From assembly GCA_029785615.1 (NCBI GenBank), contig JAFLZH010000004.1, positions 20,545-84,544 of the forward strand: a stretch of DNA of 64,000 nt. Direction: 5' to 3'. The DNA is from Nitrososphaerota archaeon. Its GTDB lineage: Archaea > Thermoproteota > Nitrososphaeria > Nitrososphaerales > Gagatemarchaeaceae. The notes beneath the pieces are model-generated. The model saw nothing but the letters and a program-made list of their open reading frames with translations. It made no database searches and was not told the origin of the DNA. Numbering within the stretch: the stretch's first letter is position 1; each line of letters begins with the position of its first letter. The translations under genes were made by a program, and so were the position numbers. Of this stretch, positions 5,996-60,501 are shown piece by piece.

Positions 5996-6430
5996 TCAGC
6001 TGCTGACGAGCAACTTCAGCCTGTCAAAATCCTTTACGGAAAAGGTGCCTTCGCAGGCGTAGCAGCCTTCCACCTTGAAGTCGGGCTCAAGGTCGCCGTG
6101 CAGGAGGCACATCATCTTGTTGAACCTGATGTAGTCGAGGACCTCGGTCATCGACCGGAGCGCCTCTCTGGTGTCGGGATGGTCCAAGGAGAGCTCCTTG
6201 GCTATCTTGTCCGCGGCCTTCGTCACGGTCGGGTCGCCCTCGAGGTTGACCATGACCCCCCTCGTCTTTCTCGCGTAGTTACTCACTGAGGCCTGGGTGA
6301 CCCCGAGGCGCTTCGCGACCTCCTGCTGGGTGAGACGGTACTCCTCCTGCAGCCTTCTCGCCACCATGGCCCTCAGGGCGGGGAGGGCTGACTTCGCGAC
6401 TATCTCATAGGGGCTGATGAGGCGGGTCAT
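5996..6430 (-). CDS. HTH transcriptional regulator with a C-terminal Cys/His cluster
   Basis: HTH segment LTQQEVAKRLGVTQASVSNYARK; C-terminal CLLHGD...CYAC. It heads the lipA-E1-E2-E3-lipB gene string. Confidence 0.6.
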   Translation of the reverse strand: MTRLISPYEIVAKSALPALRAMVARRLQEEYRLTQQEVAKRLGVTQASVSNYARKTRGVMVNLEGDPTVTKAADKIAKELSLDHPDTREALRSMTEVLDYIRFNKMMCLLHGDLEPDFKVEGCYACEGTFSVKDFDRLKLLVSS

Positions 6431-12783: not shown

Positions 12784-12900
12784 GCTTCGAGCCTGCGCGG
12801 GCCCCGGGCGCTTTTAGACATTGCCCCCCGGGAGGCCGGAATACAGTTTCACCGACCCCTCTCTCGTGACACCTTAAATCGGGTGGCGGTCCTCTCACCG

Positions 12901-36190: not shown

Positions 36191-36838
36191 GTGACCCACA
36201 GGCGCCACGCAGCTTCCGCATTGCTGCTTTTCTTGGCCTTCGTCCTCGCTGCCCAGGGAGCGATGGCCCAGACGTCCTACACGCTGACTGTCTCGACTGA
36301 CAAGCCCTCGTATGTGTACGGACAGGCGATCCAGATCTCAGGGAAGGTGTCACCACCCCCCGGGCCGAACACCGCCGTCTTCTTGGAGATAATCAACCCG
36401 CACGGAGCAGTCGTCGCGCCGGGGGAGGCTCCGGTCGGGGCCTCCACTGGTCTCTACAACTACACTTTAGTCGCCGGCGGGAACTCGGGCTGGATTGCAG
36501 GGACGTATTCCGTAAACGCCACCTGGGGAGCCTATCCTCCGCAAGTCAGTGCCGAGGCGACATTCCAATACACGCCGACCGCAGTCACATCCACCACCTC
36601 GAGCACTTCCAACACCTCAAGTTCCCAGATTACATCGACATCGAGCACCACGACCGTCTCGACCTCTTCCAGCGCCACCACCTCGGCTTCTAGCACCAGC
36701 TCCACCAAGGGGGGCGGCGGGATACCTGTGTTCCCGTTCCAGGCGGCCCTGCTAGGCGTCTTCGTCTTGGCGATAGTCTCGGCGTACCTGGTGATGAAGA
36801 GGGCATCCGTCCGGGGCGTGCCTGCGGTCACCAGGTGA
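36191..36838 (+). CDS. Secreted surface protein with a Thr/Ser-rich stalk and a C-terminal archaeosortase-type sorting signal
   Basis: Signal peptide (ALLLFLAFVLAAQGAMA), a beta-rich domain and a TSTTSSTSNTSSSQITSTSSTTTVSTSSS linker. These are followed by GGGGIPVFPFQ, a TM helix and a basic tail (KRASVR). Confidence 0.75.
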   Translation: MTHRRHAASALLLFLAFVLAAQGAMAQTSYTLTVSTDKPSYVYGQAIQISGKVSPPPGPNTAVFLEIINPHGAVVAPGEAPVGASTGLYNYTLVAGGNSGWIAGTYSVNATWGAYPPQVSAEATFQYTPTAVTSTTSSTSNTSSSQITSTSSTTTVSTSSSATTSASSTSSTKGGGGIPVFPFQAALLGVFVLAIVSAYLVMKRASVRGVPAVTR

Positions 36839-36851
36839 AAGTGGCGGACAG

Positions 36852-37748
36852 TTGAAGGCCGCTGTCAGGCTTGTCGTCTGGATTGGGGCGGGAACGGCCC
36901 TCTGCCTGGCCACCGCGCCAAATTTCCTCAGCCTTCTGGACCAGTCACTGGGAGACACGTTCGGCAGCGTCTTCCCAGCTATCCCTTTCGCCGCGCTGCT
37001 CACCCTCATCTTCGCGCTGAGATGGAACGAGCTCCGGGATGTGCTTGCGGCCGAAGGAGGGGCCACGACCCAGCTCCGGATAAGAGCCCTGGGCGCAGGG
37101 ATTCTGGTGTTGCTATGGCTGGGCGAGCCTCTAACGGCCCAGACCGTGGAAACAGCGGGAGTCGCCGTCGTCCTGACGCTCTACGCTTCCTCCCTGGTGG
37201 TCAACCCCCTGACGAAGAGAATCCTGCTCCCCTACGCCGCCATCTACTCGGCTGGGATAGGAGCCCCGTTTGTGCTTCAGTGGGCCTTCGGCGAGCCCTT
37301 GGCCTACGCGTCGTCGGTCCTCGCTTCGAGGTTCGTCGGCCTGGCAGGCCTGCCAGTGGTTTGGCAGGGTACCCAGTTCCAGCTGTTTTCTAGAACTGGA
37401 GACGTTGTAGCCGGTTACGTTGCGCCTGGCTGCTCGAGCATCATCTCGATAACCACTTTCGTCGGTCTCCTCGCGCTCATGCACATGGACATGAAGAAGG
37501 ACCTACGGTCGACGGCCATAGTCGCAGTCGCCGGGATAGCCATCCTAACACTTCTCAATTCCCTCAGGATACTGCTTCTGATGTGGGTGGGGTACGTTGA
37601 CGGAGCTTCAGCGTTCTGGGGGGTCCACAACTGGATAGGGTACGCGCTGTTTCTCGGATTCTACCTCGCTGCACTCCCGGTCTACACCAGGATGGGGAGG
37701 GGCAGCATGGTCGGCTACCCCATTTCAGGGACGCCGTACACGCCGTAG
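36852..37748 (+). CDS. Archaeosortase / exosortase-family transpeptidase
   Basis: A polytopic membrane protein with the family's Cys-Arg-His set in context: APGCSSIISI, NSLRILLLMW and VHNWIGY. Confidence 0.8.
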   Translation: MKAAVRLVVWIGAGTALCLATAPNFLSLLDQSLGDTFGSVFPAIPFAALLTLIFALRWNELRDVLAAEGGATTQLRIRALGAGILVLLWLGEPLTAQTVETAGVAVVLTLYASSLVVNPLTKRILLPYAAIYSAGIGAPFVLQWAFGEPLAYASSVLASRFVGLAGLPVVWQGTQFQLFSRTGDVVAGYVAPGCSSIISITTFVGLLALMHMDMKKDLRSTAIVAVAGIAILTLLNSLRILLLMWVGYVDGASAFWGVHNWIGYALFLGFYLAALPVYTRMGRGSMVGYPISGTPYTP

Positions 37749-37920: not shown

Positions 37921-38526
37921 TTGAAGCGGAGCGTTATCCCGAGGGAGTTCTTCTGCCGGTACACCCCCGAGGTGGCAAGTGACCTGGTCGGGTGCCGCCT
38001 TGTCAGGGTTATACGCGGCAGGAGGATATCAGGGATAGTCGTCGAGACTGAGGCATACAGGGGCCCGAAGGACCCTGCAAGTCACGCGTACAGAGGGAAG
38101 ACATCCCGGAACGGCGTGATGTTCGGACCGCCGGGGCATGCCTACGTCTACTTCACCATGGGCATGCACTTCTGCCTTAACGTCACCACGGAGCCTACTG
38201 GAACCCCGGGCGCGGTACTGCTGAGGGCGATTGAACCGGAAGAGGGAATCGCAGTGATGGTGAAGAATAGGGGGCCAATTGCAGTCGACAGACTGGCCTC
38301 GGGCCCTGGAAACCTGACGAAGGCCCTGGGCATAGGCAAGGAACTGGACGGAGAAGACTTGGTCATGTCAGACAGGATCTTCTTGGAGCACGGCCGGATG
38401 GCCAGAGAAATCGGGACAAGCCCCAGAGTGGGCGTGTCGGCTGGGAGGTCAACAAGGTGGAGGTTCTTCGAACGAGGGAACCGCTTCGTCTCAAGGGGAA
38501 GGCCATCATCTCCCCAGAACCCATAA
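37921..38526 (+). CDS. 3-methyladenine DNA glycosylase (AAG/MPG family)
   Basis: IVETEAYRGPKDPASHAYRGKTSRNGVMFGPPGHAYVYFTMGMHFCLNV. Confidence 0.88.
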   Translation: MKRSVIPREFFCRYTPEVASDLVGCRLVRVIRGRRISGIVVETEAYRGPKDPASHAYRGKTSRNGVMFGPPGHAYVYFTMGMHFCLNVTTEPTGTPGAVLLRAIEPEEGIAVMVKNRGPIAVDRLASGPGNLTKALGIGKELDGEDLVMSDRIFLEHGRMAREIGTSPRVGVSAGRSTRWRFFERGNRFVSRGRPSSPQNP

Positions 38527-38554
38527 CTATCTCAGGATTGGACCGAGGAAGGTC

Positions 38555-38662
38555 GGGGTCGTCGGCTAGTCTGGTCTAGGCTTCAAGCCTTGGGTGTCCC
38601 ATCAGTCGTGGCTGGGGGGCCGAGGCCGCTTGAGACCCCCGGTTCAAATCCGGGCGACCCCA
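38555..38662 (+). tRNA. tRNA-Pro (anticodon UGG), with an intron of about 32 nt after position 37
   Basis: Acceptor GGGGTCG/CGACCCC+A. Anticodon arm CAAGC CTTGGG[intron]C GCTTG. T arm CCCGG TTCAAAT CCGGG. My D-arm parse has one mismatch and one extra nt, so the isotype is less certain. Confidence 0.7.
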
Positions 38663-38734
38663 TCCAATCAAAAGCGCGTATTAAATCGAGTTATCATAGC
38701 GTTAAATACTTTTGACCTCGACGTCCTGGTCAGA

Positions 38735-40822
38735 TTGCAGGCCGCTCCTCGCAGGGTCAAGACGATCTATAGTGTGATCGCGTCTCCGCAGAGGCTCGAG
38801 ATTCTGAGGATACTGAACATCAAGGGACCCCTGACCTACAGCGCCCTGAAGACGCTGGCCGGGTTCAAGTCGAAGAAGGAGTCTGGGAAGTTCGCCTACC
38901 ACCTGCGAAAGCTCGTGAAGCAGCTGCTCATCCAGCTCAACAGGCAGGAGAGGAAGTACACAGTGACCAACCTGGGGAGGCTTGTGCTCAACCTCACCAG
39001 GCAGATCGAAGAGCAGTCGCTCGTAGAGAGCGGGAAGCTGTATGTCCGGACCTCGCACCAGACGATGGAGGAGTTCAATGCCAACAAGATACTCCAGTCA
39101 CTTGTGAAGGAGGCAGGGATGCCGGTGGAGCTGGCCCAGAAGATCACGAGTGAGACTGAGTCAAGGCTCTACAAGTTCCAGACCCAGTATCTGACCGCCC
39201 CTCTCATACGCGAGATAGTCAACGCGCTCCTCGTGGAGCACAGCATGGAGGAGTACAGGCACAAGCTCACCAGACTTGGGATGCCCATCTACGACGTCAC
39301 CCAACTTTTGGGGAAGGCAGGGGACGACGGGGGCAACGTCGAGTCGCTGATTCACCAGACTGGGAAGCAGGTCTTCTCCGAATATCTCCTGCTGGAACAG
39401 CTCCCGAGGGACGTGGCGGACGCTCACCTCTCCGGCGACATCCACATCACGAACGCGGGGTCCTGGGGGCTCTCGCCCGACGCAGTGTTCGTCGACCTTC
39501 TGTCTATGAGGTCCGCAGGGCTCAACCCGAGGGGGAAGATACTCAACGCCTCCATGATACCGAGCCCCGAGAATGCCGAAAAGGCGCTCAACATCGTGCT
39601 CAACATGGCTTCCATGCTCACGAGGGAAGCTTCTGACGAAGTGACCTTCCGGAACTTCCTTCAGTTTATCGGCCCGTACTGCAGATCCAAGGGGAAGAGG
39701 GAGCTCGAATCGCTCTTCCTGAGGTTCTATGAGACCATCGGGTCGCCAGTTGCCGGGGCGACCGGTCCGGCCATCAGCATCGACCTCAATCCATACAAGC
39801 ACGACGACGTCGGCCGCGAAGTCCTGGACAAGACCCTAGACGCGGCCCTCGGCGCCTACAGGAGCTACGTCGAAGAGACCCCGAGGCCTGACATCAGGAT
39901 TCTTCTGGCAAAGCCCAGCAGGGTGGACGATACGAAGACTTTGAAGGATGCCGCGTCAATCATCTTCAACGGAGGGAGGATAGCGTTCTTCTCCTCTGAC
40001 CAGCGTAGGAGCTTTCTCGGGCTGAACGCCAACGTGCTCTCTCAGGAGTCCCAGGCGGACAACATCAACGTGCTCCACGGGCTCAGCCTTAACCTCCCCA
40101 GGCTCGCCTATGACTCCAACCAAGACGAGACATACTTCCGGGCCAAGCTGGCCCTCCTCATCGGAGTGGCGGCGGACGCACTTTCGACGAGGAGGAGGCT
40201 GATTGAGAGAGCGTTGAAGAGGGGCCTCCTTCCCTCGCTGGCGTCCGGTTCGGATGCCGTGACTTCTGACACGATGCCGCTCATCATGAATTTTGTCGGC
40301 TTCGAGGAGACCCTTGCCAGTCTGATACGGGACCCGACAACGGCCTCGCGATACGAGCTCGCAGACAAGATAGTGGGGACAGCCACCCAGGTGGCAGACG
40401 ACAAGTCGACCAAGATTGACAGGCTTGGAGCTGCGATGCTGGACTTGGACGGCGCGTCGAGGCTCGCGAGCCTTGATGCTGAGAAGTATGGGAAGGCGAA
40501 CATCCAGCCTCTCATGAGAGGGGCGTATACCCAGGCCCCCAGGCTTCTCCTGGCCGACCTTGAGAACCCGGAGAAGATGGACTACGTGACGAAGCTCTCC
40601 ACAGGGCTGCGCGGAGGGGTCTCCATCACCCTGGACGGATCTTCGGACGAAGTGAGGGGGATCTACAACCTCATCCTCAACGCGTCGCCCAAACTATCCT
40701 ACTTCAAGGTGGACAGGGTCATATCGGTCTGCAGAAATTGCGGCGCGAAGCTGCCACAGAACGCAGGCAGGTGCCAGAGGTGCAAGTCCGTCGCGATGAC
40801 GCAGTATTCGACGGCGGGCTAG
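38735..40822 (+). CDS. wHTH + ATP-cone + class III RNR (NrdD)-like protein lacking radical-chemistry residues
   Basis: The tracked start at 38594 overlaps tRNA-Pro. An in-frame TTG at 38735 lies about 27 nt after TTAAATA (38702-38708). ArsR-like wHTH (SPQRLEILRILNIKGPLTYSAL); ATP-cone (KLYVRTSHQTMEEFNANKILQSL...); NrdD-like AHLSGDIHITN and LSLNLPRLAY; terminal CRNCG...CQRC ribbon. Confidence 0.7.
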   Translation: MQAAPRRVKTIYSVIASPQRLEILRILNIKGPLTYSALKTLAGFKSKKESGKFAYHLRKLVKQLLIQLNRQERKYTVTNLGRLVLNLTRQIEEQSLVESGKLYVRTSHQTMEEFNANKILQSLVKEAGMPVELAQKITSETESRLYKFQTQYLTAPLIREIVNALLVEHSMEEYRHKLTRLGMPIYDVTQLLGKAGDDGGNVESLIHQTGKQVFSEYLLLEQLPRDVADAHLSGDIHITNAGSWGLSPDAVFVDLLSMRSAGLNPRGKILNASMIPSPENAEKALNIVLNMASMLTREASDEVTFRNFLQFIGPYCRSKGKRELESLFLRFYETIGSPVAGATGPAISIDLNPYKHDDVGREVLDKTLDAALGAYRSYVEETPRPDIRILLAKPSRVDDTKTLKDAASIIFNGGRIAFFSSDQRRSFLGLNANVLSQESQADNINVLHGLSLNLPRLAYDSNQDETYFRAKLALLIGVAADALSTRRRLIERALKRGLLPSLASGSDAVTSDTMPLIMNFVGFEETLASLIRDPTTASRYELADKIVGTATQVADDKSTKIDRLGAAMLDLDGASRLASLDAEKYGKANIQPLMRGAYTQAPRLLLADLENPEKMDYVTKLSTGLRGGVSITLDGSSDEVRGIYNLILNASPKLSYFKVDRVISVCRNCGAKLPQNAGRCQRCKSVAMTQYSTAG

Positions 40823-40974
40823 CTAATCAGTTCGCACTTCCTTCTTGTCAACATCAGTTCACAGTCGAACGTCTCATGTCGTCGAGAAAAAGGCGAGTAC
40901 CCTCCTTGGTGGTTAACTCGGAATAAGCCGAGTCGGAATTATATATCGCAAGCCACAGGGTGCAGGCTAAGGTT

Positions 40975-43290
40975 ATGACGTCGATAGTTGAACAACCACG
41001 CGACTCTCCGGATGTAGGAGAGGAGATGAAAGGGGAGGTCAGACTCCCCTCGGAGACTTTGGCGGCGTTCGGAGGAGACGAGCTGCGCGCCCGGGTCTTC
41101 TACGAGAAGTACGCATTGAGAGACGCAACGGGCCAACAGGTTGAGAAGGTCCCGGCTGACATGTGGCGCAGGGTCGCGAAAGAGCTCGCCTCGCCCGAGA
41201 AGGACGAGGACAAGAAGAAGGAATGGGCCAACAGGTTCTACTGGCTCCTTGAGAACTACCGTTTCGTCCCCGGAGGGAGGATTCTTTTCGGCGCGGGGCA
41301 GACCAGGAAGTCGACGCTCCTGAACTGCTACTTCTTCAAGATCAAAGAGGACTCAATCGAAGCGATATTCGACTGGTGCAAGGAGGCCGCTCGGACATAC
41401 AGCTTCGGTGGGGGGGTCGGGACGGATATTTCGGTCCTGAGACCCAGGGGGGCACCGGTGAACAACTCCGCCATCTACAGCTCCGGTTCGGTGTCGTTCA
41501 TGGAGCTGCTCTCGACGACGACGGGGACCATCGGTCAGGCGGGAAGGCGCGGAGCCCTCATGATTACCATTGGGGTGGACCATCCGGACGTGATTGACTT
41601 CATCAACGTGAAGCGCGACCTCAAGAGAGTCAACTATGCCAACATCTCGGTGAAGATCACCGACGACTTCATGAGGGCGGTGGAGACCGACGGAGACTTT
41701 CTGCTCCACTTCAAGAACGACAAGGTGGAAGTGAACCGCACCGTGAGGGCGAGGGAGGTGTGGAAGTCCCTAATCAAGGGAGCCTGGCAGTCGGCGGAGC
41801 CTGGGGTGCTCTTCTGGGACGCGATCAAGCGCGAGTCCACCACCGAGTACAACGGCATGGAGGTGCAGGGGGTCAACCCTTGCAGCGAACAGACCCTTGA
41901 GAGCTACGGGTGCTGCTGCCTGGGCTCCGTAAACCTGAGCGCGTTCGTAAAAGACCCTTTTACCGAAAGGGCGAGCATCGACTGGGATTCCCTCACGAGG
42001 GCAGCCCAATACGGGGTCAGGTTCCTGGACAACGTCCTTGACTACAATGCCGAGCGGCATCCGCTCCCGCAGCAAAAGGAGGCGTCGCTCCACAGCAGGA
42101 GGATAGGGGTGGGGATCACCGGCCTGGGAGACATGCTCATCAAGCTCGGCCTGAAGTATGATGATGACTCGACCATCGAGTTCGTGGATCACCTCTTTGA
42201 GAAAATCAAGAACGTCTTCTACGATTACTCTACCGAGCTGGCGGAGGAGAAGGGGAGCTTCCCCGCGTTCGATGCGGCCAAGCACCTGGCCCAGCCGTTC
42301 ATCTCGAGGCTGGATGAGAAGGTGAAGGGGAAGATTAGGACCCAGGGTATCAGGAACGCGGCGGTCACCACCATCCCTCCCGTGGGCTCAGGGTCGATCC
42401 TCGCAGGTACCAGCAGCGGCGTCGAGCCGGTCTTCGCGCTCTTCTACACGCGGAGGAGCAAATCGTTGAGCGAGGGGGAGTTCAAGGTCTTCCACCCGCT
42501 CGTGAGAGAGTACATGGCGGCAACGGGAGCGAGGGACGAAAACCAGCTCCCCAACTACTTCGTAACGTCGCACCAGATCAAGCCAGACATGAGGGTGAAG
42601 ATGCAGGCGACCATCCAGAAGCACATCGACACAGCGATCTCAAGCACTGTGAACCTCCCAGAGGACATAACACCGGAGGAGGTCGAGAAGATCTACCTCC
42701 TAGCCTGGCGGATGGGGTGCAAGGGCATCACGGTCTATAGGGAGGGGAGCAGGGAGGGAATCCTTGAGACTGCGAAGGTCGCCAAGAAGGTCGAAGCCAA
42801 GCCGGCGGCAGGCTTTGAGCGGCCCAAGGTGATGGAGGGAAGGACCCTAAAGCTCAAGCTCCCCCAGGGGAACATCTACCTCACCGCTAACCTGGTCGAA
42901 GGGGAGATCAAAGAGGTCTTCGTTACCCTGGGCAAGTCTGGGGCCGATGAGAACGCAGACGCGGCCGCGCTCGGCAGGCTGATTAGCCTGTACCTCCAAC
43001 ATGGAGGGAGCATCAAGAACGTCATCTCCACCCTGAAGGGGATCAAGGGGAAGTACGTCTCTTGGGACGAGGGGACACAGCTCCAGTCCATCCCAGACGC
43101 CATCGCGAAAGCCCTGGAACTCCTGACCCTCAACCACGTGGTCAAGGAGTCGGGCTTCGTGGACGAGACGAAGGGGAAGGCAGCCTCAAGGGGAGGGACA
43201 GGCACCTGTCCCGACTGTCATGAGAGCGCCCTCGTGTTCGAGAATGGCTGCTACCACTGCAGTTCGTGTGGCTACTCGAAGTGCGAATAG
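40975..43290 (+). CDS. nrdJ: Adenosylcobalamin-dependent ribonucleotide reductase (class II)
   Basis: NPCSEQTLESYGCCCLGSVNL active-site loop, TIPPVGSGS, ISSTVNLP and a C-terminal CPDCH...CSSCG ribbon. The ATG at 40975 lies about 33 nt after AATTATATAT (40937-40946). An alternative GTG is at 40960. Confidence 0.9.
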   Translation: MTSIVEQPRDSPDVGEEMKGEVRLPSETLAAFGGDELRARVFYEKYALRDATGQQVEKVPADMWRRVAKELASPEKDEDKKKEWANRFYWLLENYRFVPGGRILFGAGQTRKSTLLNCYFFKIKEDSIEAIFDWCKEAARTYSFGGGVGTDISVLRPRGAPVNNSAIYSSGSVSFMELLSTTTGTIGQAGRRGALMITIGVDHPDVIDFINVKRDLKRVNYANISVKITDDFMRAVETDGDFLLHFKNDKVEVNRTVRAREVWKSLIKGAWQSAEPGVLFWDAIKRESTTEYNGMEVQGVNPCSEQTLESYGCCCLGSVNLSAFVKDPFTERASIDWDSLTRAAQYGVRFLDNVLDYNAERHPLPQQKEASLHSRRIGVGITGLGDMLIKLGLKYDDDSTIEFVDHLFEKIKNVFYDYSTELAEEKGSFPAFDAAKHLAQPFISRLDEKVKGKIRTQGIRNAAVTTIPPVGSGSILAGTSSGVEPVFALFYTRRSKSLSEGEFKVFHPLVREYMAATGARDENQLPNYFVTSHQIKPDMRVKMQATIQKHIDTAISSTVNLPEDITPEEVEKIYLLAWRMGCKGITVYREGSREGILETAKVAKKVEAKPAAGFERPKVMEGRTLKLKLPQGNIYLTANLVEGEIKEVFVTLGKSGADENADAAALGRLISLYLQHGGSIKNVISTLKGIKGKYVSWDEGTQLQSIPDAIAKALELLTLNHVVKESGFVDETKGKAASRGGTGTCPDCHESALVFENGCYHCSSCGYSKCE

Positions 43291-44438: not shown

Positions 44439-44771
44439 TCAGGAGGTTAGCTTCAGGATGGCTCGGGCAACCTCGCCGTCCGACTGCTCTAGGGCCGCCA
44501 CGGCTTTCTCCCTGGAGGCTCCGGCCTGCTGCTGCACCAGGAGGATGTCCTCATCGCTGAACGTCTTCCGCTCTACCTCCACCTCCTCGACCTCGCCCAC
44601 GACCTGGAACATCCTCTGCCCCTGGGCGTTGACCTCTGACACGGAAGCGTTGGTGATGTGCATCTCCGTGTCGGGCGTCTTGATCACTACCTCCTGGACG
44701 TTGGGGATCTCCTTCATGTTGATCCCGAGGCGGTCCATCATTCTTCTCGCGTTCCTGTTGTCCATCTTCAT
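44439..44771 (-). CDS. nac: Nascent polypeptide-associated complex protein (NAC + UBA)
   Basis: NARRMMDRLGINMKEIPNVQEVVIK ... a C-terminal UBA-like segment (DILLVQQQAGASREKAVAALEQSDGEVARAI). Confidence 0.9.
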   Translation of the reverse strand: MKMDNRNARRMMDRLGINMKEIPNVQEVVIKTPDTEMHITNASVSEVNAQGQRMFQVVGEVEEVEVERKTFSDEDILLVQQQAGASREKAVAALEQSDGEVARAILKLTS

Positions 44772-45235
44772 GTCGTTGTCCCTGCTCTGACCTTCACCGC
44801 CGTCCCCGACTTAAATTGTTCCATGTGCGCCCCATTCAGCACCGCCATGCCCACCCCCAGGACCTTCCAGTTCCGGTCTACGACGGCCACCTCTCCCTTG
44901 GGGTAGATGCTCTTCCCGGACCAGGTGACGAACTTGCAGAACACGGACTTCCCTCCGCGGACGAACTGCGCGGCCTCGTCTGTGACCTGGACGCAGCTGT
45001 CCCTGAACCTGGGACTCCTGGAGAGGGTCTGGGCACCATACATGGAGAGGGCCATGGCCCCGTTCGGCTTCACGGTGGCGAAGAGCTTCCCGTCCAATTG
45101 GATCAGTTTCACCCTCCCTGATCTTCTCGAACGGAAGAGTCGGTAGCCACTCTTCGGCAGGGCCCTGCTCACCCCCTTCCCGAACAGGTAGTCGACCATC
45201 AGAGCCACCTGCCTTCGGTCGGTCGGAGACGCCAT
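44768..45235 (-). CDS. PUA-domain RNA-binding protein
   Basis: The C-terminal PUA pattern (KGEVAVVDRNWKVLGVGMAVLNG...GTAVKVR). I prefer the ATG at 45235 over the tracked upstream start. Confidence 0.7.
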   Translation of the reverse strand: MASPTDRRQVALMVDYLFGKGVSRALPKSGYRLFRSRRSGRVKLIQLDGKLFATVKPNGAMALSMYGAQTLSRSPRFRDSCVQVTDEAAQFVRGGKSVFCKFVTWSGKSIYPKGEVAVVDRNWKVLGVGMAVLNGAHMEQFKSGTAVKVRAGTTT

Positions 45236-45439
45236 CGCCGGGGCGCCGCCGTGCGGGCGATAAATCTGTGAGGTTGCAGGCTCTGCCGGCGATGCGGCAG
45301 CCTCCCCCCGCGCCTGACCGATCCAAAGCCAAGCCCCGAGGGCGGGCGCCCGGCGGAGCCGCCGTGGTTCCCCTGCACTGTTCATCTACCGGGGCCGCGA
45401 GAGGCCGGCCGAGAGGGAGCGAGCACGAAGAGCATCCGG

Positions 45440-53076: not shown

Positions 53077-56000
53077 CTACGGACGGAGAATTGAAGTCTG
53101 AAGAAGCGAAGAAATGTCGAAGAGAGCAGAAAATCCGGAACCGTGACAGTTTCGAGCCAGGACAGGCAAAGCCTGGGCGGAGGGAAGACACCTCTGCTGG
53201 GAATCATATTTCCCGAGCTTCGTCTGGAGCTCCTCCTCTTCCTTCCTGCGTCGCTTCCCCGCGATGAGGAAGAACCACGCGAAGAAGAATACAAGGGAGC
53301 CCACGAGCATGGGGATGATGAAGAACCAAATCCATGATATCTGGCTCGCAATGCCGACACGAGTGGGCACGCTCTGAAGGTTCCCGATAGCAAAGTTGGT
53401 CCCGCCCAGTCTGGCTATCGGGACAGTCCCGCAGATTGTGAATCCCGCTGTCGTAATGTCAGATGGATTCACCCAGGTGCTCCCGTTCCAGTATTGCATT
53501 CCGGTGCCGGCACCGACAATGGAATTGGTGATGCAGACGTGGGCGTTCAACCCGGTCGGGATGGTCCCGTTACCGACTACGAACACGTCGAAGTATCTGA
53601 TCGCACCGGTAAAGGTCTCGGCGGTGACTCCGTAGGAGGGCAGGGTGAGGTTCGCGAGCTCGATTCTGAGCGTCGTGCCGGGGGCGTTCCCGAGGCCAGG
53701 GATGGAGACCGAGATTCCCGTCGTGGCCGTCTCGTCGACGACGGCCGTGCCGTTGGTCGAGGTCACTGGGAAGACGTCCGAGTGGTAGTTGCCGACGTTC
53801 GTGACTATGAAGGTCGTTGTCGCCACGTCTCCGGGGCGGGTCGCCACGTCGCTCCCGGTCGCGGTGACAGTTTCGGCCCCGGGGGGAGAAGATGGGACGC
53901 TGAACGTAGCCGAGAAGGTCCCGTTGGGACCTACAGTCGCTGCGGCTACCGTACCTCTGCTTATCACGATGTTGACCGTCGCACCAGGAGTGAACCCGGT
54001 TCCGTCCACGGTCACTGGAGTACCTGTGAGCCCCGAAGTCGGCGTGATAGCGATGGCGGGACCTCCAGCCGGAGCGGTAGTGAGGATAAAGACCGCGTAG
54101 GCGACGATTTGCCCGGTGCTAGCGTCGCTTACGACCACCAAGCCATTCTGGCCGAAGGCAGTGAGGACGGTTAGGGGAGGGACGGCGCCTGAGGAAGTTG
54201 AGGTGAACTCGTAGGTCGTCGGACATGGGGACATGGTGCTGAGAGTGACGCCCGGCTCGAAGCAGTAGTAGTAGTTACCACCAGGCGAGAAGTTGGAGCC
54301 GCTGAGGAAGATCAGTGTTCCCGGCGGGCCGGAGGTCGGCGTGATGGTGATGACGGTGGTGGACCCGACAGCCACCGTGTCCACGGGAGAACACGCGCTT
54401 TCAGGGGTGTGGGCCGAGTCGGTGACTTTGTAGGAGTATACCGTCGAGGTGGACGGTGAGGGAGAGAAGCTGGCAGCTGTCGCACCTGAGACAGGGCTGG
54501 CGCACCCTGCTCCCGCGTACCACTGGTAGGAGTATGGGGCTGTCCCGCCTGAGGGGCTGGCCGAGAGGCGGATGGACTGCCCAGCGCTGATGGTCGGGGC
54601 GGAGGGAGTTATCGGTCCGGCGATGAGCTCGCCGTTTACTGTCACGGCGTCACCCCCCACGCAGGACTTGGTGCCCGTCGCGTCGGTCACCTGGACCCAG
54701 TAGGTGGTGGTCGTGGAGGGTGAGACGGTGAAGCTCGAGCTGGTTCCCGATACCTGGCCGCTGCAGTCTGCCCCGGTGAACCACTCGTAGGAATAAGGAC
54801 CAACGCCGCCACTGGGAGTTATGGTGAGGGTGATTGGTTGGCCGCCGTCGATGGAAGGTGAAGGTGGTTCTATCCCGCCAGGCGATAGGGTGGAGCCGTA
54901 GGTGACAGAGCTGGAAGAAGTCGCGGTGTTGCCGTCAGCGTCGGTGACGGTCAGGCCGACGGAGTAGCTTCCAGGGGCCCTGGCGATGACGGTGCATGAC
55001 TGGTCGGAAGGCCCGCACCCCGAGGCGACGGACATTCCGCCTGGGAGGTTCCATGAGTAGGTGTAGGGTGAGGTACCGCCCGAGGCGGTTGCGGTGAACG
55101 TGACGGGCGAACCCAAGGTCGCGCTCACGGGAGCTGACACCAGGACGGAAAGGGGCGCAGGGCCGACCTTGAGGGTCGCCGGGGAAGAGGTCGAAACATC
55201 GTTGGCGCTGTCCGTGACCCTTACGCTCACCGAGTAGGACCCTGGGGCGGCGGAGGTCACTGTGCAGGTGTCGGCGGTGGAGTCGCACCCTGACACCACC
55301 GTGACGCCTGAGGGAATGCTCCAGTAGTAGGTATACGGCGAAGTGCCGCCTGTGGGGGTAACTCTGAAGGTGACGTCACTCCCCGCTTGAATTGTCGCGG
55401 TCGAAGGCGACAGCGGCCCCGCATGGAGCGAAGGCAGGGGAGCTGGGCTGTTTACCGTTACAGTGTCCCCCGCGGAACAGGCAGACTCAGGCGTTGAAGC
55501 AGAGTCGGTGACTTGGTAGTAGTAGGCGGTCGTAGAGGAGGGCGAAGCATCGTATGTAGAGGAGATTGCTCCGCTTATGGGGCTGGTGCAGCCAGCTCCA
55601 GTGAACCATTGATACGCGTAGGCGGTGGTACCGCCGTTCGGGTTTGCAGTAAGGAGCACCGATGAGCCGCTGGAGATGGTAGGCGATGGAGGTGTTATGG
55701 CTCCTGCGCTCAGGGCCGGGTTGACGGTCACCGCCACGGGGCTGGACGTCGAGACTGCGCCAGTCACGCTGTCGACGACGGTTGCACAGTAGTAGGTAGT
55801 TGAAGCGGGCGAGACGGAGACGCCAGTGAGCGGGCTCGTTCCGATGTTGGCATGCGCCGAACCTACTTGGGTGATGTCGAGGGCGCAACTTGTGGACGAG
55901 GAACCGCTGTAAATCGTTATCGTGAAGTCTGCCGTCCCGCCGGTCCAAGACACTTGGAGGGTGCCCGACTGCCCGCTGTCCAGAACGGCGGGTGAAGGCG

Positions 56001-59000
56001 TCGCGGTGACCCCGGAGATCGCCGCGTTGACCGTTACCAAGTCGGTTGGGGAGCTTACAGCCGGAGGATTGGTCGAGGCGTCTGTAACTTCGTAACAGTA
56101 GTAGGTGTTGGAAGTCGGCGATACCAACTGGATGGATGAGGTACCCAGGGGTGTCGTATCAGAGGTACAGGCCGCACTGGACCCTGAGTACCACTGGTAG
56201 GTGTACGAACCGGTTCCGCCTGATGGGTGGGCGGTGAGGGTCAATGATTGGCCGCTGTCGATCGTGGGGGATGCTGGGGTGATGGCTCCAGCCGAAAGAG
56301 CAGTGTCAACAGCTACCTGGTCCGTAGCTGAGCTAGTCGTGGGCGGGTTGGTGGATGTGTCAGATATGCTGTAGCAGTAGTAGGTGTTCGAGGTCGGCGA
56401 CACTACCTGAGCGGATGACGTCCCGAGCGTTGCGGTGTCAGAGGAACAGGTGGAGCTCGAACCTGAATACCATTGGTAGGTGTACGCCCCCGTCCCTCCT
56501 GACGGATGCGCCGTGAGGGTTACCGACTGTCCATTGTCGACGGTCGGGGAAGAGGGAGTGACTGCGCCGGCCGAAAGAGCGGAATCCACTGTGACCAAGT
56601 CGGTCGCCGATGACACCGTGGGAGGGTTCGTCGAAGTGTCCGACAGTGAATAGCAGTAGTATGTGTTGGTTGTGGGTGAAACCACCTGTGTGGAAGCAGT
56701 TCCCAGTGTGGCGGTGTCAGAAGCACAGGAGGTGCTTGACCCGGAGTACCACTTGTATGTGTAGGAGCCGGTTCCGCCTGATGGATTAGCCGTAAGGGTG
56801 ACGGACTGGCCGCTGTCTATGGTAGGACCATTTGGGGTCATTGCCCCCGCTGAAAGTGTACTGTCTACGGTAACTGCGTCGCCAGATGAGCAAGAGGTAG
56901 TTGAAGTGGAGTCAGTCACCTTGACGTAGTACGTGGTAGAGGAGCCAGGCGAGGCAGCAAGAGTGGAGGCCGTCGCTCCAGATATAGGAGAGGTGCTGCA
57001 GTCAGAGGAGGTATACCACTGATAGGTATAGGGGCTGGTCCCGCCGCTGGGATTGACAGCCAGCGTGACAGATTGACCGTTGTCTATTGTGGGAGATGAG
57101 GGGGAGATGGTTCCTGCAGCAAGGGGGACGTTGACTGTCACCAGGTCTGTGGCAGAATTCACGGTTGGAGTGTTGGTCGAAGTGTCCGTGACGGAGTAGC
57201 AATAGTAGGTATTCGACGTCGGAGATGGAGCGTAAGTCGATGAAGTCTGCCCGCTCACCGCCGAATCCGAGGAACAGGCCGCGCTGGACCCTGAGTACCA
57301 CTGGTAGGCGTAGGAGCCGGTACCGCCCGAGGGGTGAGCCGTCAGGGTGACTGATACACCGCTGTTGATGGTCGGGCTAGTGGGGGTAATCGCGCCGGCA
57401 GTCAGCGCGGAATCCACTGTGACAAGATTGGCGGCCGAGGTCGACGTTGGCGGGTTGGTCGATGAATCTGTCACCGAGTAGCAGTAGTATATGTTTGATG
57501 TGGGTGAGACCGCCTGGGTTGAAGCGGTTCCAAGTGTCGTAATGTCGGACGAACACGTTGAACTCGAACCAGAGTACCACTGATACGTATAGGACCCGGT
57601 CCCACCGGACGGATGGGCTGTCAATGTGACGGACTGTCCGCTGTCGATGATTGGAGATGTCGGGGTCACAGCACCGGCAGCCAGTATTGCATCTACCGTC
57701 ACTGTGAAAGTGCTTGAGCTTGCGGTTGGGGTCGGGGAAGAACCTGAAGTCACTCCGGCATCCGTGACGATATAGCAGTAGTAGTAGGTGCCAGCAGAAG
57801 TCGACGTTGGGACAGTATAGGTTGAAGATGTCGCCCCGCTGATGGAGGCATCGCTCGTGCTGCATGTTCCAGGGCTGCTGGCGCTGTACCATTGGTAAGC
57901 GAAAGTCCCCGTGCCTCCTGAAGGATGCGAAGTCAACAACAGCGACTGGCCGCTGTCGATGGTTGATCCTGGTGCTGTGATAGCTCCTGCAGAGGGGGAG
58001 CTGTCGACGGTGACGGCGTCCCCGCTCGAGCAACTTGTAGCGCTCGTCGAGTCGGTGACCAGCACGTAGTAGGTGGTTGTCGACGACGGAAACGGGGAGA
58101 AGGTTTGCGAAGTCCCTAGCACCGAGCCGCTGCAACCCGAGCCGGAGTACCATTGGTAGGTGTAGCCGGGGTTCCCTCCGGTGGGGTTGGCAGTGAGGGT
58201 CACCGACTGGCTGCTATCGATGGTCACGGGGGATGGAGAGATGGCTCCTGCAGAAAGGACGTTGTTTACGGTAAGGGAAGATCCTGACGTGGGAGAAGCC
58301 GCAGAATTCGAGTTGGCGTCGGTGACCTTGGCACAGTAGTAGTAAGTGTTGGCGGAGCCCGGCGAAGTGAAACTCAGAGTTTGTGGCGACGATGACGCGC
58401 CGGTCACCTGTCCAGCCTGAGTGTCGGCGCTCGAGCAGGAAGAACTCGACGTGCTGTAATAGAGGGTGACCGTGAAGGTTCCGGTCCCGCCTGACCATGA
58501 GACGCTTACAGAGTCAGACGTGGTGGGCCCGACAGGGTCCGCCGCGAACGACCCGAGCGAAACGCTGGACGGGAGCGGGTTCGCCGTGACTGTCGTCGGG
58601 GTCGAGGTCGTGGTTACCGGGGTCGAGGCGCTGTCGGTCACCTTCAGCTCGAATGAGTAGACACCGGATGTTGTGAGGGTCCCCGTGGACTGAGTGTAGG
58701 TCGTGACCCCGGCGCTGCATGAGAAGGAAGAGCCCAGGTTGCTGTAGCTGCTGGCGCCAGGGGCCTCCTGCAGCCACTGACAAGTGTAGGATGATGTGCC
58801 GCCGCTGAAGGCCGAGGTGACAGTGAGCGATGTCGAACCGCCCACGTCGAAGGCCGGTGACGCTTGAGAGATAGCAGGGGCGCTCAACGGTGTGTTCACG
58901 GTAACCTGATCGGTGCCAGACCCGGATGTGGGAGCGGGAGTCGACCCGGACGTCACCCCCGTGTCAGTGATGATGTAGCAGTAGTAGTAGATCCCGGACG

Positions 59001-60501
59001 TGGTTGAGGTCGGAACTGCGTAGGAAGCAGAGGTGGCGCCGCTGATCGGTGCGTCACCAGTGGTGCAGGTTCCGGGAGAGCTTGCGGTGTACCATTGGTA
59101 GGTGAAGGTTCCAGTGCCCCCTGTGGGAGCTGGGGCTGTGAGTAGGACGGACTGACCCTGGTCGATCACAGGGGTCGAGGGTGTTACCGACCCTGCCACA
59201 GGCGCGCTGTCAACGGCGACCGCGTCCCCGCTGGAGCAGGCCGTCGCGTGGGTCGGCGTTGCCGAGTCTGTGACATATACGAAGTAGGTTCCGGCCGACG
59301 AGACAGAAAGGGAGGACGCCGTGCCCAGGACCGTCCCTGAGCACCCTGACCCAGAATACCACTGGTAAGTATAGGGTGAGGTGCCGCCATATGGGTTCGC
59401 AGCAAGCGAAATCGACTGCCCGCTGTCAATGGTCGGAGTGGAAGGCGAGATGGCGCCTGCATTCAGAGCGACGGCGGTCACGGCGACTGTAGCAGGCGTC
59501 GAAAACCCCTGAGGTGTAGGTGAATTCGACCCGTCGGACACTTGAAGCTCAAAGCTCCAAGTCCCGGATGTTGTGAGGGTCCCCGTGGACTGAGTGTAGG
59601 TCGTGACCCCGGCGCTGCATGAGAAGGAAGAGCCCAGGTTGCTGTAGCTGCTGGCGCCAGGGGCCTCCTGCAGCCACTGACAAGTGTATGGTGAGGCACC
59701 TCCGCTGAATCCGGAGGTCATCGATAGAGAGGAACTCTGACCCTGGTCTATAGACGACGGCGTGGCCGCGATGGTGGGAGCGACCAGCGCTGGGTTTACA
59801 GTGATGGTCACTTCAGCCGTCGCCGTGTCGGTTGTGACCGTGTCAGTGACGATCAGGCAGAAGTAGTAAGTGCCTGCGGCGGCCGGCGTGTAGTCCAAGG
59901 TCGATGACGTATAGGAGGAGCCCAGGCTCGTCAATGAAGAACATGAAGCGTCTGTGCTTGAGTACCACTGGTAGGTGAAACCGTCTGTTGTCGCACAGTT
60001 TATCGTAGTAGTGACTTTGAAGTCCTCGCCCTTGTTGATCTTCTGATTGGGATTGTTGAATGTGATGCACCCTGTCGTGCCGTAGGCTGCAGAGGTGATC
60101 GGTGTCCCGGTAGCGCAGGTGGAGTTGGCGCATACAATAATGAAGACATTTCCGAACGAGGAGCTTGGGACCGTGTCAGTGATGCCGGACGGTATGTTGC
60201 CAGAGGCATCAGTGGTGAAGGTCCCGTCGGGATGGGATGAGGATGGAGTGCTGCCGGCGTCCAGGCACAGGTTAGAGTGCGCCGTTCCTGACGCAAAGCA
60301 GTACCCTTCCACTGTGTTGGCAGAGTAACCTGTGCCCGACAGCGTGACGACCGTCCCCTGGCCGCCGGAGGACGGGTTTATCGCCAGGGTCGCTGTGCCG
60401 CTGCCAGCGCGCGTTGGGCCAGCAACTGGGATGATGGCGAGCGTGGCCGAGGTCAGCAGCAGGACCGCGACCAGCAGAGACCTTAGCGCACGGGAGTTCA
60501 C
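53077..60501 (-). CDS. Giant secreted, C-terminally membrane-anchored surface protein built from about 20 tandem Ig-like/beta-sandwich repeats
   Basis: 2474 aa with a GTG start. Signal peptide LLVAVLLLTSATLAIIPVAG. Repeats of about 90-100 aa each carry Y(T/A)YQWY(S/T)GS..C. It is extremely Thr/Ser/Gly-rich, with a C-terminal TM helix (WIWFFIIPMLVGSLVFFFAWFFLIAG) followed by KRRRKEEEE. Confidence 0.85.
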   Translation of the reverse strand: MNSRALRSLLVAVLLLTSATLAIIPVAGPTRAGSGTATLAINPSSGGQGTVVTLSGTGYSANTVEGYCFASGTAHSNLCLDAGSTPSSSHPDGTFTTDASGNIPSGITDTVPSSSFGNVFIIVCANSTCATGTPITSAAYGTTGCITFNNPNQKINKGEDFKVTTTINCATTDGFTYQWYSSTDASCSSLTSLGSSYTSSTLDYTPAAAGTYYFCLIVTDTVTTDTATAEVTITVNPALVAPTIAATPSSIDQGQSSSLSMTSGFSGGASPYTCQWLQEAPGASSYSNLGSSFSCSAGVTTYTQSTGTLTTSGTWSFELQVSDGSNSPTPQGFSTPATVAVTAVALNAGAISPSTPTIDSGQSISLAANPYGGTSPYTYQWYSGSGCSGTVLGTASSLSVSSAGTYFVYVTDSATPTHATACSSGDAVAVDSAPVAGSVTPSTPVIDQGQSVLLTAPAPTGGTGTFTYQWYTASSPGTCTTGDAPISGATSASYAVPTSTTSGIYYYCYIITDTGVTSGSTPAPTSGSGTDQVTVNTPLSAPAISQASPAFDVGGSTSLTVTSAFSGGTSSYTCQWLQEAPGASSYSNLGSSFSCSAGVTTYTQSTGTLTTSGVYSFELKVTDSASTPVTTTSTPTTVTANPLPSSVSLGSFAADPVGPTTSDSVSVSWSGGTGTFTVTLYYSTSSSSCSSADTQAGQVTGASSSPQTLSFTSPGSANTYYYCAKVTDANSNSAASPTSGSSLTVNNVLSAGAISPSPVTIDSSQSVTLTANPTGGNPGYTYQWYSGSGCSGSVLGTSQTFSPFPSSTTTYYVLVTDSTSATSCSSGDAVTVDSSPSAGAITAPGSTIDSGQSLLLTSHPSGGTGTFAYQWYSASSPGTCSTSDASISGATSSTYTVPTSTSAGTYYYCYIVTDAGVTSGSSPTPTASSSTFTVTVDAILAAGAVTPTSPIIDSGQSVTLTAHPSGGTGSYTYQWYSGSSSTCSSDITTLGTASTQAVSPTSNIYYCYSVTDSSTNPPTSTSAANLVTVDSALTAGAITPTSPTINSGVSVTLTAHPSGGTGSYAYQWYSGSSAACSSDSAVSGQTSSTYAPSPTSNTYYCYSVTDTSTNTPTVNSATDLVTVNVPLAAGTISPSSPTIDNGQSVTLAVNPSGGTSPYTYQWYTSSDCSTSPISGATASTLAASPGSSTTYYVKVTDSTSTTSCSSGDAVTVDSTLSAGAMTPNGPTIDSGQSVTLTANPSGGTGSYTYKWYSGSSTSCASDTATLGTASTQVVSPTTNTYYCYSLSDTSTNPPTVSSATDLVTVDSALSAGAVTPSSPTVDNGQSVTLTAHPSGGTGAYTYQWYSGSSSTCSSDTATLGTSSAQVVSPTSNTYYCYSISDTSTNPPTTSSATDQVAVDTALSAGAITPASPTIDSGQSLTLTAHPSGGTGSYTYQWYSGSSAACTSDTTPLGTSSIQLVSPTSNTYYCYEVTDASTNPPAVSSPTDLVTVNAAISGVTATPSPAVLDSGQSGTLQVSWTGGTADFTITIYSGSSSTSCALDITQVGSAHANIGTSPLTGVSVSPASTTYYCATVVDSVTGAVSTSSPVAVTVNPALSAGAITPPSPTISSGSSVLLTANPNGGTTAYAYQWFTGAGCTSPISGAISSTYDASPSSTTAYYYQVTDSASTPESACSAGDTVTVNSPAPLPSLHAGPLSPSTATIQAGSDVTFRVTPTGGTSPYTYYWSIPSGVTVVSGCDSTADTCTVTSAAPGSYSVSVRVTDSANDVSTSSPATLKVGPAPLSVLVSAPVSATLGSPVTFTATASGGTSPYTYSWNLPGGMSVASGCGPSDQSCTVIARAPGSYSVGLTVTDADGNTATSSSSVTYGSTLSPGGIEPPSPSIDGGQPITLTITPSGGVGPYSYEWFTGADCSGQVSGTSSSFTVSPSTTTTYWVQVTDATGTKSCVGGDAVTVNGELIAGPITPSAPTISAGQSIRLSASPSGGTAPYSYQWYAGAGCASPVSGATAASFSPSPSTSTVYSYKVTDSAHTPESACSPVDTVAVGSTTVITITPTSGPPGTLIFLSGSNFSPGGNYYYCFEPGVTLSTMSPCPTTYEFTSTSSGAVPPLTVLTAFGQNGLVVVSDASTGQIVAYAVFILTTAPAGGPAIAITPTSGLTGTPVTVDGTGFTPGATVNIVISRGTVAAATVGPNGTFSATFSVPSSPPGAETVTATGSDVATRPGDVATTTFIVTNVGNYHSDVFPVTSTNGTAVVDETATTGISVSIPGLGNAPGTTLRIELANLTLPSYGVTAETFTGAIRYFDVFVVGNGTIPTGLNAHVCITNSIVGAGTGMQYWNGSTWVNPSDITTAGFTICGTVPIARLGGTNFAIGNLQSVPTRVGIASQISWIWFFIIPMLVGSLVFFFAWFFLIAGKRRRKEEEELQTKLGKYDSQQRCLPSAQALPVLARNCHGSGFSALFDISSLLQTSILRP
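58664..58788. repeat. 125-bp perfect direct repeat, copy 1 (copy 2 at 59564-59688)
   Basis: Identical by eye from CCGGATGTTGTGAGGGTCCCCGTGGAC... to ...CAGCCACTGACAAGTGTA. The offset is exactly 900 bp, and both copies lie inside the giant gene. Confidence 0.9.
59564..59688. repeat. 125-bp perfect direct repeat, copy 2
   Basis: See copy 1. It encodes CQWLQEAPGASSYSNLGSSFSCSAGVTTYTQSTGTLTTSG in both repeat units. Confidence 0.9.

Follow-up and report, generated by a model that had tools for sequence, protein, structure and literature searches.

Organization of the locus

We analyzed a 64-kb stretch of DNA from a Nitrososphaerota archaeon (contig JAFLZH010000004.1 of assembly GCA_029785615.1), referred to here as the window and numbered from its first nucleotide, together with flanks of ±6 kb around the loci of relatives. 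The subject of this report is the gene at 38735-40822 (+), whose 695-aa product, here named X, joins an N-terminal winged helix-turn-helix (wHTH) to an ATP-cone and a body resembling NrdD, the class III (anaerobic) ribonucleotide reductase (RNR). It lies upstream of, and is co-directional with, a class II RNR gene, nrdJ. We present X as an apparently undescribed and strong candidate for an archaeal regulator of RNR. The genes at the core of the locus are as follows.

38735-40822, + strand: gene X, start TTG, stop TAG; wHTH, ATP-cone, predicted dead NrdD body and zinc ribbon, 695 aa
40975-43290, + strand: nrdJ, class II RNR and presumed target; TIGR02504 555.7 bits, PF02867 365 bits, TSCPD domain
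38555-38662, + strand: tRNA-Pro(TGG) with a 32-nt intron, found by ARAGORN only in intron mode, directly upstream of the X promoter

The stop-to-stop open reading frame (ORF) of X would also allow a GTG start at 38594. We place the start at TTG 38735, as the initial annotation of this DNA had it, because the GTG overlaps the tRNA-Pro gene, because more than 100 close homologues of X are 695 aa long, and because a conserved TATA box lies at 38702-38708. The nrdJ product, an adenosylcobalamin-dependent enzyme of 771 aa (the 365-bit match is to Ribonuc_red_lgC), is read from an ATG at 40975 that is kept across the locus alignment, and a Pfam/NCBIfam scan found no ATP-cone in it. The tRNA-Pro gene was missed by ARAGORN at default settings and gave a sub-threshold tRNA-Sec match in Rfam (25 bits). 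In several related loci (L002, L004, L005, and L008) X is likewise preceded by this tRNA. A search of 38300-41100 against Rfam (E ≤ 1) returned no riboswitch, including cobalamin riboswitches, and no other regulatory RNA.

Domain architecture and fold of X

Four domains and the remnant of a catalytic loop can be delimited in X.

38750-39031, + strand: wHTH, aa ~6-99; PF24038 (DUF7347), 38.2 bits against a cut-off of 27.6
39041-39256, + strand: ATP-cone, aa ~103-174; PF03477, 29.9 bits against a cut-off of 25.8; non-canonical
39332-40714, + strand: NrdD-like alpha/beta-barrel core, aa ~200-660, both catalytic cysteines absent; from profile and Foldseek comparisons
39998-40021, + strand: finger-loop remnant DQRRSFLG, aa 422-429, where NrdD has its thiyl-radical cysteine (MGCRSFL)
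40730-40783, + strand: zinc ribbon CxxC-N10-CxxC (C666, C669, C680, C683), aligning to the NrdD ribbon, all four cysteines invariant in alignment A1

The wHTH lacks cysteines. Its score for the ArsR-type model HTH_20 (24.1 bits) falls just under that model's cut-off of 27, and comparison with the PDB yielded weak ArsR/SmtB matches; in the AlphaFold model the domain has three helices, a recognition helix, and a beta-wing (helices at H18-62, wing strands at E66-77). Together with the DUF7347 match over its cut-off, this agrees with the earlier description of an ArsR-like wHTH added at the N-terminus. The ATP-cone that had also been described is likewise present at a score over its Pfam cut-off, in a modified form. 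In an alignment it reads V-R-T-S, whereas the cones of Escherichia coli NrdA and NrdD and of Nitrosopumilus NrdJ read V/I-x-K-R, and that of a genuine archaeal NrdD adjoining one of the long-form relatives described below reads V-R-K-S. A K21-like lysine and a C-terminal YRHK are retained, and a single-sequence PDB search with the ATP-cone segment gave no meaningful match. The cone may bind nucleotides in a modified way, or it may bind something else.

The remainder of X is a class III RNR in fold. The core retains the motifs DAHLSGDIHI, LNLPR, R..LD..KYG, Y-T, and GG, of which the first two had been recognized in the initial annotation as class III landmarks, along with the terminal CxxC..CxxC ribbon. 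X scores 92.2 bits with Pfam NRDD and 84.7 bits with the NCBIfam NrdD equivalog model (TIGR02487), the latter below its cut-off of 326.35. A profile built from 59 family members matched every class III RNR in the PDB at E-values of 1e-37 to 1e-29, and the match spans profile positions 221-713, so that the catalytic domain is covered in full together with the ribbon. The AlphaFold2 model derived from the family alignment (mean predicted local distance difference test 87.4, predicted template modeling score 0.77) retrieved the class III enzyme 9d3x first in Foldseek at 8.5e-22, followed by 4coj, 8p2c, and 1h79, with template modeling scores of ~0.58 to 0.66; class I RNRs and glycyl-radical lyases ranked far lower. 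Public annotations of X read "ArsR family transcriptional regulator" or, often, "anaerobic ribonucleoside-triphosphate reductase."

Loss of the radical chemistry

X contains five cysteines in all, namely the four of the ribbon and C316 (in GPYCRSK). The initial annotation had counted this single cysteine outside the ribbon, and its position varies among Ser, Cys, Thr, and Ala across 78 orthologues. It had also read the radical-cysteine finger loop as DQRRSFLG. Alignment of 291-RSFL of T4 NrdD to the RSFL of X places an arginine opposite the radical Cys290, and the family profile alignment, which shifts the register by a few residues, places a leucine opposite the thiyl-radical cysteine (T4 C290, E. 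coli C384); whichever register is used, there is no cysteine between aa 317 and 665 of X. None of the 78 orthologues has a cysteine at the finger-loop columns, in which G429 is invariant. The second active-site cysteine (T4 C79, E. coli C175) is also gone: FNCMLIDL aligns to DAVFVDL, with an alanine at that place, and no cysteine occurs at the E. coli Cys175 position in any of 105 family representatives.

At the C-terminus, 12 residues follow the last CxxC (KSVAMTQYSTAG) before the stop. Across the 78 Nitrososphaeria orthologues this post-ribbon tail comprises 6 to 14 residues, ends in glycine in 7, and contains G[YFW] in none, so that the glycyl-radical domain is missing throughout, in line with the earlier remark that the RVxGY motif is absent. 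Nor was an activase found, as had been noted for the immediate vicinity: tblastn with E. coli NrdG gave no match in the window or in any of the ±6 kb flanks, and a motif search identified the lipoyl synthase at 5067-5993 as the only real gene in the window with an in-frame radical-SAM CxxxCxxC. Alignment with NrdD, which the initial annotation had suggested as a check, thus confirmed that both the catalytic cysteine and the glycyl-radical glycine are lost. Judged by its sequence, X is catalytically dead as a class III RNR.

Distribution and linkage to RNR genes

A scan of one genome per GTDB species gave at least 590 confirmed relatives of X. The best 80 of these are all from Nitrososphaeria and span Nitrososphaerales, Nitrosopumilaceae, Nitrosotalea, Nitrosotenuis, Nitrosopelagicus, and Gagatemarchaeum; at the protein level, the window shows 95% identity to Nitrososphaerales metagenome-assembled genomes. 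A same-strand RNR large-subunit gene lies downstream of X in all 78 Nitrososphaeria loci with enough sequence (four truncated loci were left out of this count), and gene calls in L001, L002, and L082 confirmed that the two genes are directly adjacent.

Older relatives carry source names that place them in Bathyarchaeota and Thorarchaeota. A library of 50%-identity representatives comprised 211 clusters at E < 1e-30, among them long-form relatives of 740 to 770 aa. These align with the NRDD model from one end to the other (P0151, 307 bits) and keep the glycyl-radical tail with its glycine replaced, e.g., SRSLAKY versus SRITGYY. P0151 is encoded directly upstream of a genuine NrdD (483 bits, RITGY), with which it shares 32% identity along the entire chain, and all three critical sites are substituted in it (CC to GT, C to I, and G to A). 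For L084, too, the full-length identity between the X relative and its real NrdD neighbor is 32%. Among the 59 long-form loci with room for a neighbor, all from sediment metagenomes, 49 have a bona fide nrdD downstream and 1 has nrdJ, and every complete nrdD gene among these ends in an RVTGY or RITGY tail. Shorter, more degenerate relatives can be unlinked from RNR genes. Because the relatives precede class III genes and the Nitrososphaeria X precedes a class II gene, the partner is best described as the RNR gene, whatever its class. These relationships indicate that X is an old tandem paralogue of archaeal NrdD, whose link to RNR appears to have outlasted the switch from class III to class II.

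Several further features of these loci were observed. A small CxxC redoxin ORF (VVYTSNGCHKC..., NrdH- or thioredoxin-like) sits between the long form and nrdD in many of the loci L084 to L165, and L084 has a Thioredoxin_3 gene after nrdD instead. The NrdJ of Nitrosopumilaceae (898 aa; L082, 8218-10914), which is present alongside X, has its own N-terminal ATP-cone (81 bits). Some relatives have intein-containing nrdJ genes, as in L001 (10208-15721, 1,837 aa, with Hint and LAGLIDADG domains) and in L016 and L019 (~3.3 kb, intein-interrupted); the nrdJ of the window is intein-free. The pair of NAC and TGT_C2/PUA genes downstream of the window nrdJ (44439-45385, -) is found in L166 (7682-8532) directly beside an RNR-unlinked 565-aa relative of X. 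Because this pair adjoins an X relative there, the X neighborhood seems to be an old syntenic block in which the RNR gene may be absent.

Conservation along X

Identity was measured from the window protein to progressively more distant Nitrososphaeria orthologues, and it falls very unevenly along the chain. In the most distant group the wHTH retains 73% and the ATP-cone 66% identity, with 29% for the NrdD-like core (the ranges across Nitrososphaeria are 73 to 100% for the wHTH and 66 to 100% for the cone). The segment AGFKSKKESGKFAYHLRKL of the wHTH shows no variation among the 78 orthologues, and it includes the predicted recognition helix. This is the distribution expected of a DNA-binding sensor and not of an enzyme.

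Candidate operators and promoters

The initial annotation had proposed a search for palindromes in 40823-40974 and 38663-38734, and both intervals proved to contain a conserved palindrome of the form GTCAA-N5/6-TTGAC. The regulatory features are listed here.

38701-38716, no strand assigned: palindrome GTTAAATACTTTTGAC, enclosing the X TATA box (38702-38708), ~30 nt before the TTG; candidate autoregulatory operator
40847-40862, no strand assigned: palindrome GTCAACATCAGTTCAC, 25 nt past the X stop and 128 nt upstream of the nrdJ ATG; candidate distal operator
40870-40877, + strand: CGTCTCAT box, a conserved column block in the X-nrdJ intergenic alignment
40911-40917, no strand assigned: half-site GGTTAAC (GTCAAC in relatives) with conserved GT(C/T)AA columns, ~20 nt upstream of the nrdJ TATA box
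40939-40946, + strand: nrdJ TATA box TTATATAT, a conserved ATATATA block ~30 nt before the ATG

Upstream of X, the Nitrososphaerales locus alignments contain the conserved block GTTAAATAC(T/A)TTTGAC. At the 9 other TATA-like sites of the window no TTGAC follows; it is not a generic promoter feature there. Between X and nrdJ, the alignment shows four footprints within otherwise diverged DNA, namely the palindrome, the box, the half-site, and the TATA box. The palindrome is perfect in L028 to L031 (GTCAAC-N4-GTTGAC), its Nitrosopumilaceae equivalent reads GTCAACAAAATTGAY, and in that family, at ~42% protein identity, GTCAACAAAATTGA(C/T) is found upstream of nrdJ; the palindrome persists even in lineages whose intergenic DNA is otherwise unalignable. 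The CGTCTCAT box follows it after ~8 nt at fixed spacing in all Nitrososphaerales loci and occurs also in the deeper lineages L032 to L036 (as TCTCAT). Its place might be where transcription begins from a distal promoter, with the TATA-like center of that promoter inside the palindrome. The nrdJ transcript itself is probably near-leaderless.

When up to one mismatch was allowed, GTCAA-N5/6-TTGAC had 85 matches, in 60 of 79 loci, within the regulatory regions upstream of X and between X and nrdJ. This amounts to 2.62 per kb, compared with 0.091 per kb in the remaining 954 kb of flanks. Composition-matched first-order Markov simulations predicted 2.6 ± 1.6 matches (maximum 7), and the regulatory regions are thus enriched ~30-fold over both flanks and simulations. 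In the window alone, GTCAACNNNNGTTGAC with at most two mismatches has 4 matches against 2.1 expected, which is not significant; the signal emerges only when loci are compared with one another.

Two other candidates in the intergenic region were discarded: a hairpin, ACTCGG-AATAAG-CCGAGT (40916-40933), considered as an operator or terminator, is not kept in orthologous loci, and a leaderless 16-codon ORF from the conserved CTCATG (40875) depends on an ATG that is not conserved. Elsewhere in the window, a one-mismatch site, GTCAA-N5-TTTAC, lies at 6023-6037 between the genes for lipoyl synthase and an Lhr helicase and may be due to chance; the other matches fall within coding regions at background density.

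X as a proposed autoregulated regulator of the RNR gene

We propose that X is an autoregulated transcription regulator of the RNR gene, and on the comparative evidence we put the probability of this at roughly 0.7. The idea that a pseudo-enzyme has been turned into an RNR-specific transcription factor, already raised in the initial annotation, gains support from the linkage to RNR, its independence of RNR class, the conservation of the wHTH and cone, and the palindromes. That X senses nucleotides, for which the initial annotation had named ATP/dATP, is a separate matter, and here we judge the balance to tip only slightly in favor. A similarly slight preference attaches to the broader proposition that, across archaea (Nitrososphaeria, Bathyarchaeia, and Thorarchaeota), the X family is the missing counterpart of the bacterial regulator NrdR, reading the pool of ribonucleoside and deoxyribonucleoside triphosphates (NTPs and dNTPs) and setting the transcription of whichever RNR class is resident as well as its own.

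In the sequence of events that we envisage, an ancestral archaeal nrdD would have been duplicated in tandem, and the upstream copy would have gained an N-terminal wHTH and lost the two cysteines of the active site as well as the glycine that carries the glycyl radical. The entire C-terminal glycyl-radical domain would then have been lost in Nitrososphaeria, and the neighboring RNR gene would have come to be nrdJ, not nrdD. Class III RNRs are alpha2 dimers, and for this reason the NrdD-like body of X may serve as a dimerization scaffold. The ATP-cone, and possibly also the fossil effector or substrate nucleotide pockets of the barrel, would read the nucleotide pool, and the nucleotide state would set the binding of two wHTH domains to the GTCAA-N5/6-TTGAC palindromes. 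Since one palindrome encloses the TATA box of X itself, autorepression by blocking TBP/TFB is predicted; at nrdJ, where a palindrome and a half-site precede the TATA box, nucleotide-dependent control of RNR transcription is predicted. The outcome would be NrdR-like, reached through unrelated DNA-binding and scaffold parts.

A number of observations weigh against this proposal. Nine of the 59 long-form loci have no RNR gene nearby, and the 565-aa short form and P0214 are not adjacent to any RNR gene. The palindrome statistics (85 matches against 2.6 expected) overstate independence, because the motif was defined on the loci in which it was counted and these loci are phylogenetically related. 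The GTCAA palindrome shows no significant enrichment in the loci of the long forms, which lie outside Nitrososphaeria (7 against 2.9 expected, simulation maximum 8); the long forms have a differing wHTH, and de novo k-mer and palindrome counts in their loci returned only AT-rich TATA-like words (TTTAA-N4-TTAAA, GTTTAAAA) that are not interpretable. Another factor could bind the palindromes, and the sites at nrdJ lie upstream of its core promoter, a position compatible with repression as well as with activation. Nucleotide binding by the cone is not assured, given that it lacks the canonical Lys-Arg pair and scores barely over the Pfam cut-off.

Alternative explanations

The alternative that survives best, which we nonetheless regard as unlikely, is that X is a transcription factor for which RNR is not the main target or nucleotides are not the signal, for instance a regulator with a broader part in replication or repair, or a sensor of metals or redox state working through its zinc ribbon, that has simply stayed in an old syntenic block. 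The relatives unlinked from RNR genes and the non-canonical ATP-cone are compatible with such a role, as is the near-match at 6023-6037 between lipoyl synthase and the Lhr helicase, and our site search covered the window and the ±6 kb flanks. Against it, the linkage survives replacement of the RNR class and is therefore not explained by plain synteny, and the palindromes are specific to the X-RNR gap and the X promoter, the other matches in the window being coding and at background density.

It is rather less probable that X works as a regulatory subunit without catalysis of its own and targets the RNR protein directly, for example through nucleotide-responsive heteromerization or sequestration, with the wHTH in a secondary role. 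X is paralogous over its full length to an RNR catalytic subunit whose normal state is a dimer, it keeps the module that controls RNR activity through oligomerization, and the window NrdJ has no ATP-cone of its own, all of which would suit this arrangement. Yet the neighboring RNR is class II in Nitrososphaeria and class III for the long forms, and one conserved mode of protein-protein interaction is unlikely because the quaternary interfaces of the two classes differ. The Nitrosopumilaceae NrdJ, moreover, already carries its own ATP-cone, no part of X is better conserved than the DNA-binding domain, and the genes are flanked by conserved palindromes.

That X is a still-active RNR or other glycyl-radical-type enzyme, using unconventional residues or a partner in trans, is suggested by its intact NrdD fold, its substrate-side motifs (LNLPR, R..LD..G, Y-T, and GG), and the frequent public annotation as a reductase, but it is exceedingly improbable in view of 78 orthologues without a cysteine at or near either catalytic position or a glycyl-radical domain, no NrdG in the window, 85 bits against a 326-bit equivalog cut-off, a fast-evolving core (29% identity) beside a nearly frozen wHTH, and a working RNR gene that is always adjacent.

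Other features of the window

Three other groups of genes deserve mention. A secreted Ser/Thr-rich protein with a C-terminal hydrophobic anchor is encoded at 36191-36838 (+), with an exosortase/archaeosortase-like PF09721 membrane protein directly downstream (36852-37748, +), and the two look like a sortase-substrate pair. A giant ORF of 2,474 aa at 53077-60501 (-), with Ig, PKD, and SprB-type repeats and in a region of strongly positive GC skew, probably encodes a surface adhesin. Two Lhr-type DEAD/H helicase paralogues flank a Rad50/SMC-like ATPase (6608-9475, +; 10777-12783, -; 12739-15747, +) in what looks like a DNA-repair cluster.

Significance

Control of dNTP supply is essential for genome stability. 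Bacterial NrdR exerts it through transcription, and the control of RNR expression in archaea is a largely open question for which X offers a concrete protein, candidate DNA sites, and a ligand hypothesis. If our reading is right, no transcription factor before X would have been traced to an RNR catalytic subunit, and ammonia-oxidizing archaea would have their first described regulator specific to RNR. It is found in apparently all Nitrososphaeria examined, including the ammonia oxidizers, which dominate nitrification in oceans and soils, and it has relatives in Bathyarchaeia and Asgard archaea. It would also be a clean case of an enzyme becoming a regulator of its own pathway, with surviving intermediates in the long forms, which kept the glycyl-radical tail and lost its glycine. 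A practical consequence is that the name "anaerobic ribonucleoside-triphosphate reductase" on many database entries wrongly implies anaerobic dNTP synthesis.

Comparison with known systems

Trigger enzymes and pseudoenzyme regulators, PutA, BirA, and PyrR among them, employ an enzyme fold to sense a ligand in the control of their own pathway, and X would share this principle. Most such regulators remain catalytically active, unlike X, and none is known, or was met in the literature searched, that derives from RNR. The wHTH of X resembles ArsR/SmtB proteins and the archaeal DUF7347 family, matching the latter over its cut-off and ArsR models weakly, and a dimeric wHTH on a palindrome overlapping the promoter is the usual mode of such archaeal regulators. 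Those proteins are ~100 to 120 aa long and sense metals or redox state, whereas in X sensing would fall to a fossil enzyme together with an ATP-cone, nearly 600 aa in all. With NrdD itself (PDB 9d3x, 8p23, 4coi, and 1h78), X shares the ATP-cone, the ten-stranded barrel, LNLPR and other motifs, and the C-terminal CxxC..CxxC ribbon; it differs in lacking the thiyl-radical cysteine, the second cysteine, and the glycyl-radical domain, in its extra wHTH, and in scoring far under the equivalog cut-off. X is homologous to NrdD but fails four of its defining features. A fusion of wHTH, ATP-cone, and dead NrdD was not found described in the openly accessible full texts searched, nor did targeted reading in Lundin (2009, 2010, and 2015), Burnim (2022), and Rozman Grinberg (2022) reveal one.

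The closest functional parallel is NrdR, the RNR-specific repressor of bacteria, in which a zinc ribbon is joined to an ATP-cone. It is known to switch DNA binding through ATP/dATP-dependent oligomerization and is rare in archaea (PMC9110341), in agreement with the earlier comment that archaea generally lack it. No match of X to the NrdR family model was found among the NCBIfam/Pfam results at E ≤ 0.1. Outside the ATP-cone the two proteins are unrelated: X has an N-terminal wHTH where NrdR has an N-terminal zinc ribbon, carries a dead NrdD body of ~500 residues, and places its own, NrdD-type ribbon at the C-terminus, its cone lacks the K-R pair, and its GTCAA-N5/6-TTGAC box is unrelated to NrdR boxes. 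What they have in common is an ATP-cone joined to a DNA-binding module, a gene encoded with or beside RNR genes, and palindromic boxes in the promoters of RNR genes and, it appears, of their own genes, those of X being candidate sites. By this comparison, X would be analogous, and not homologous, to NrdR.

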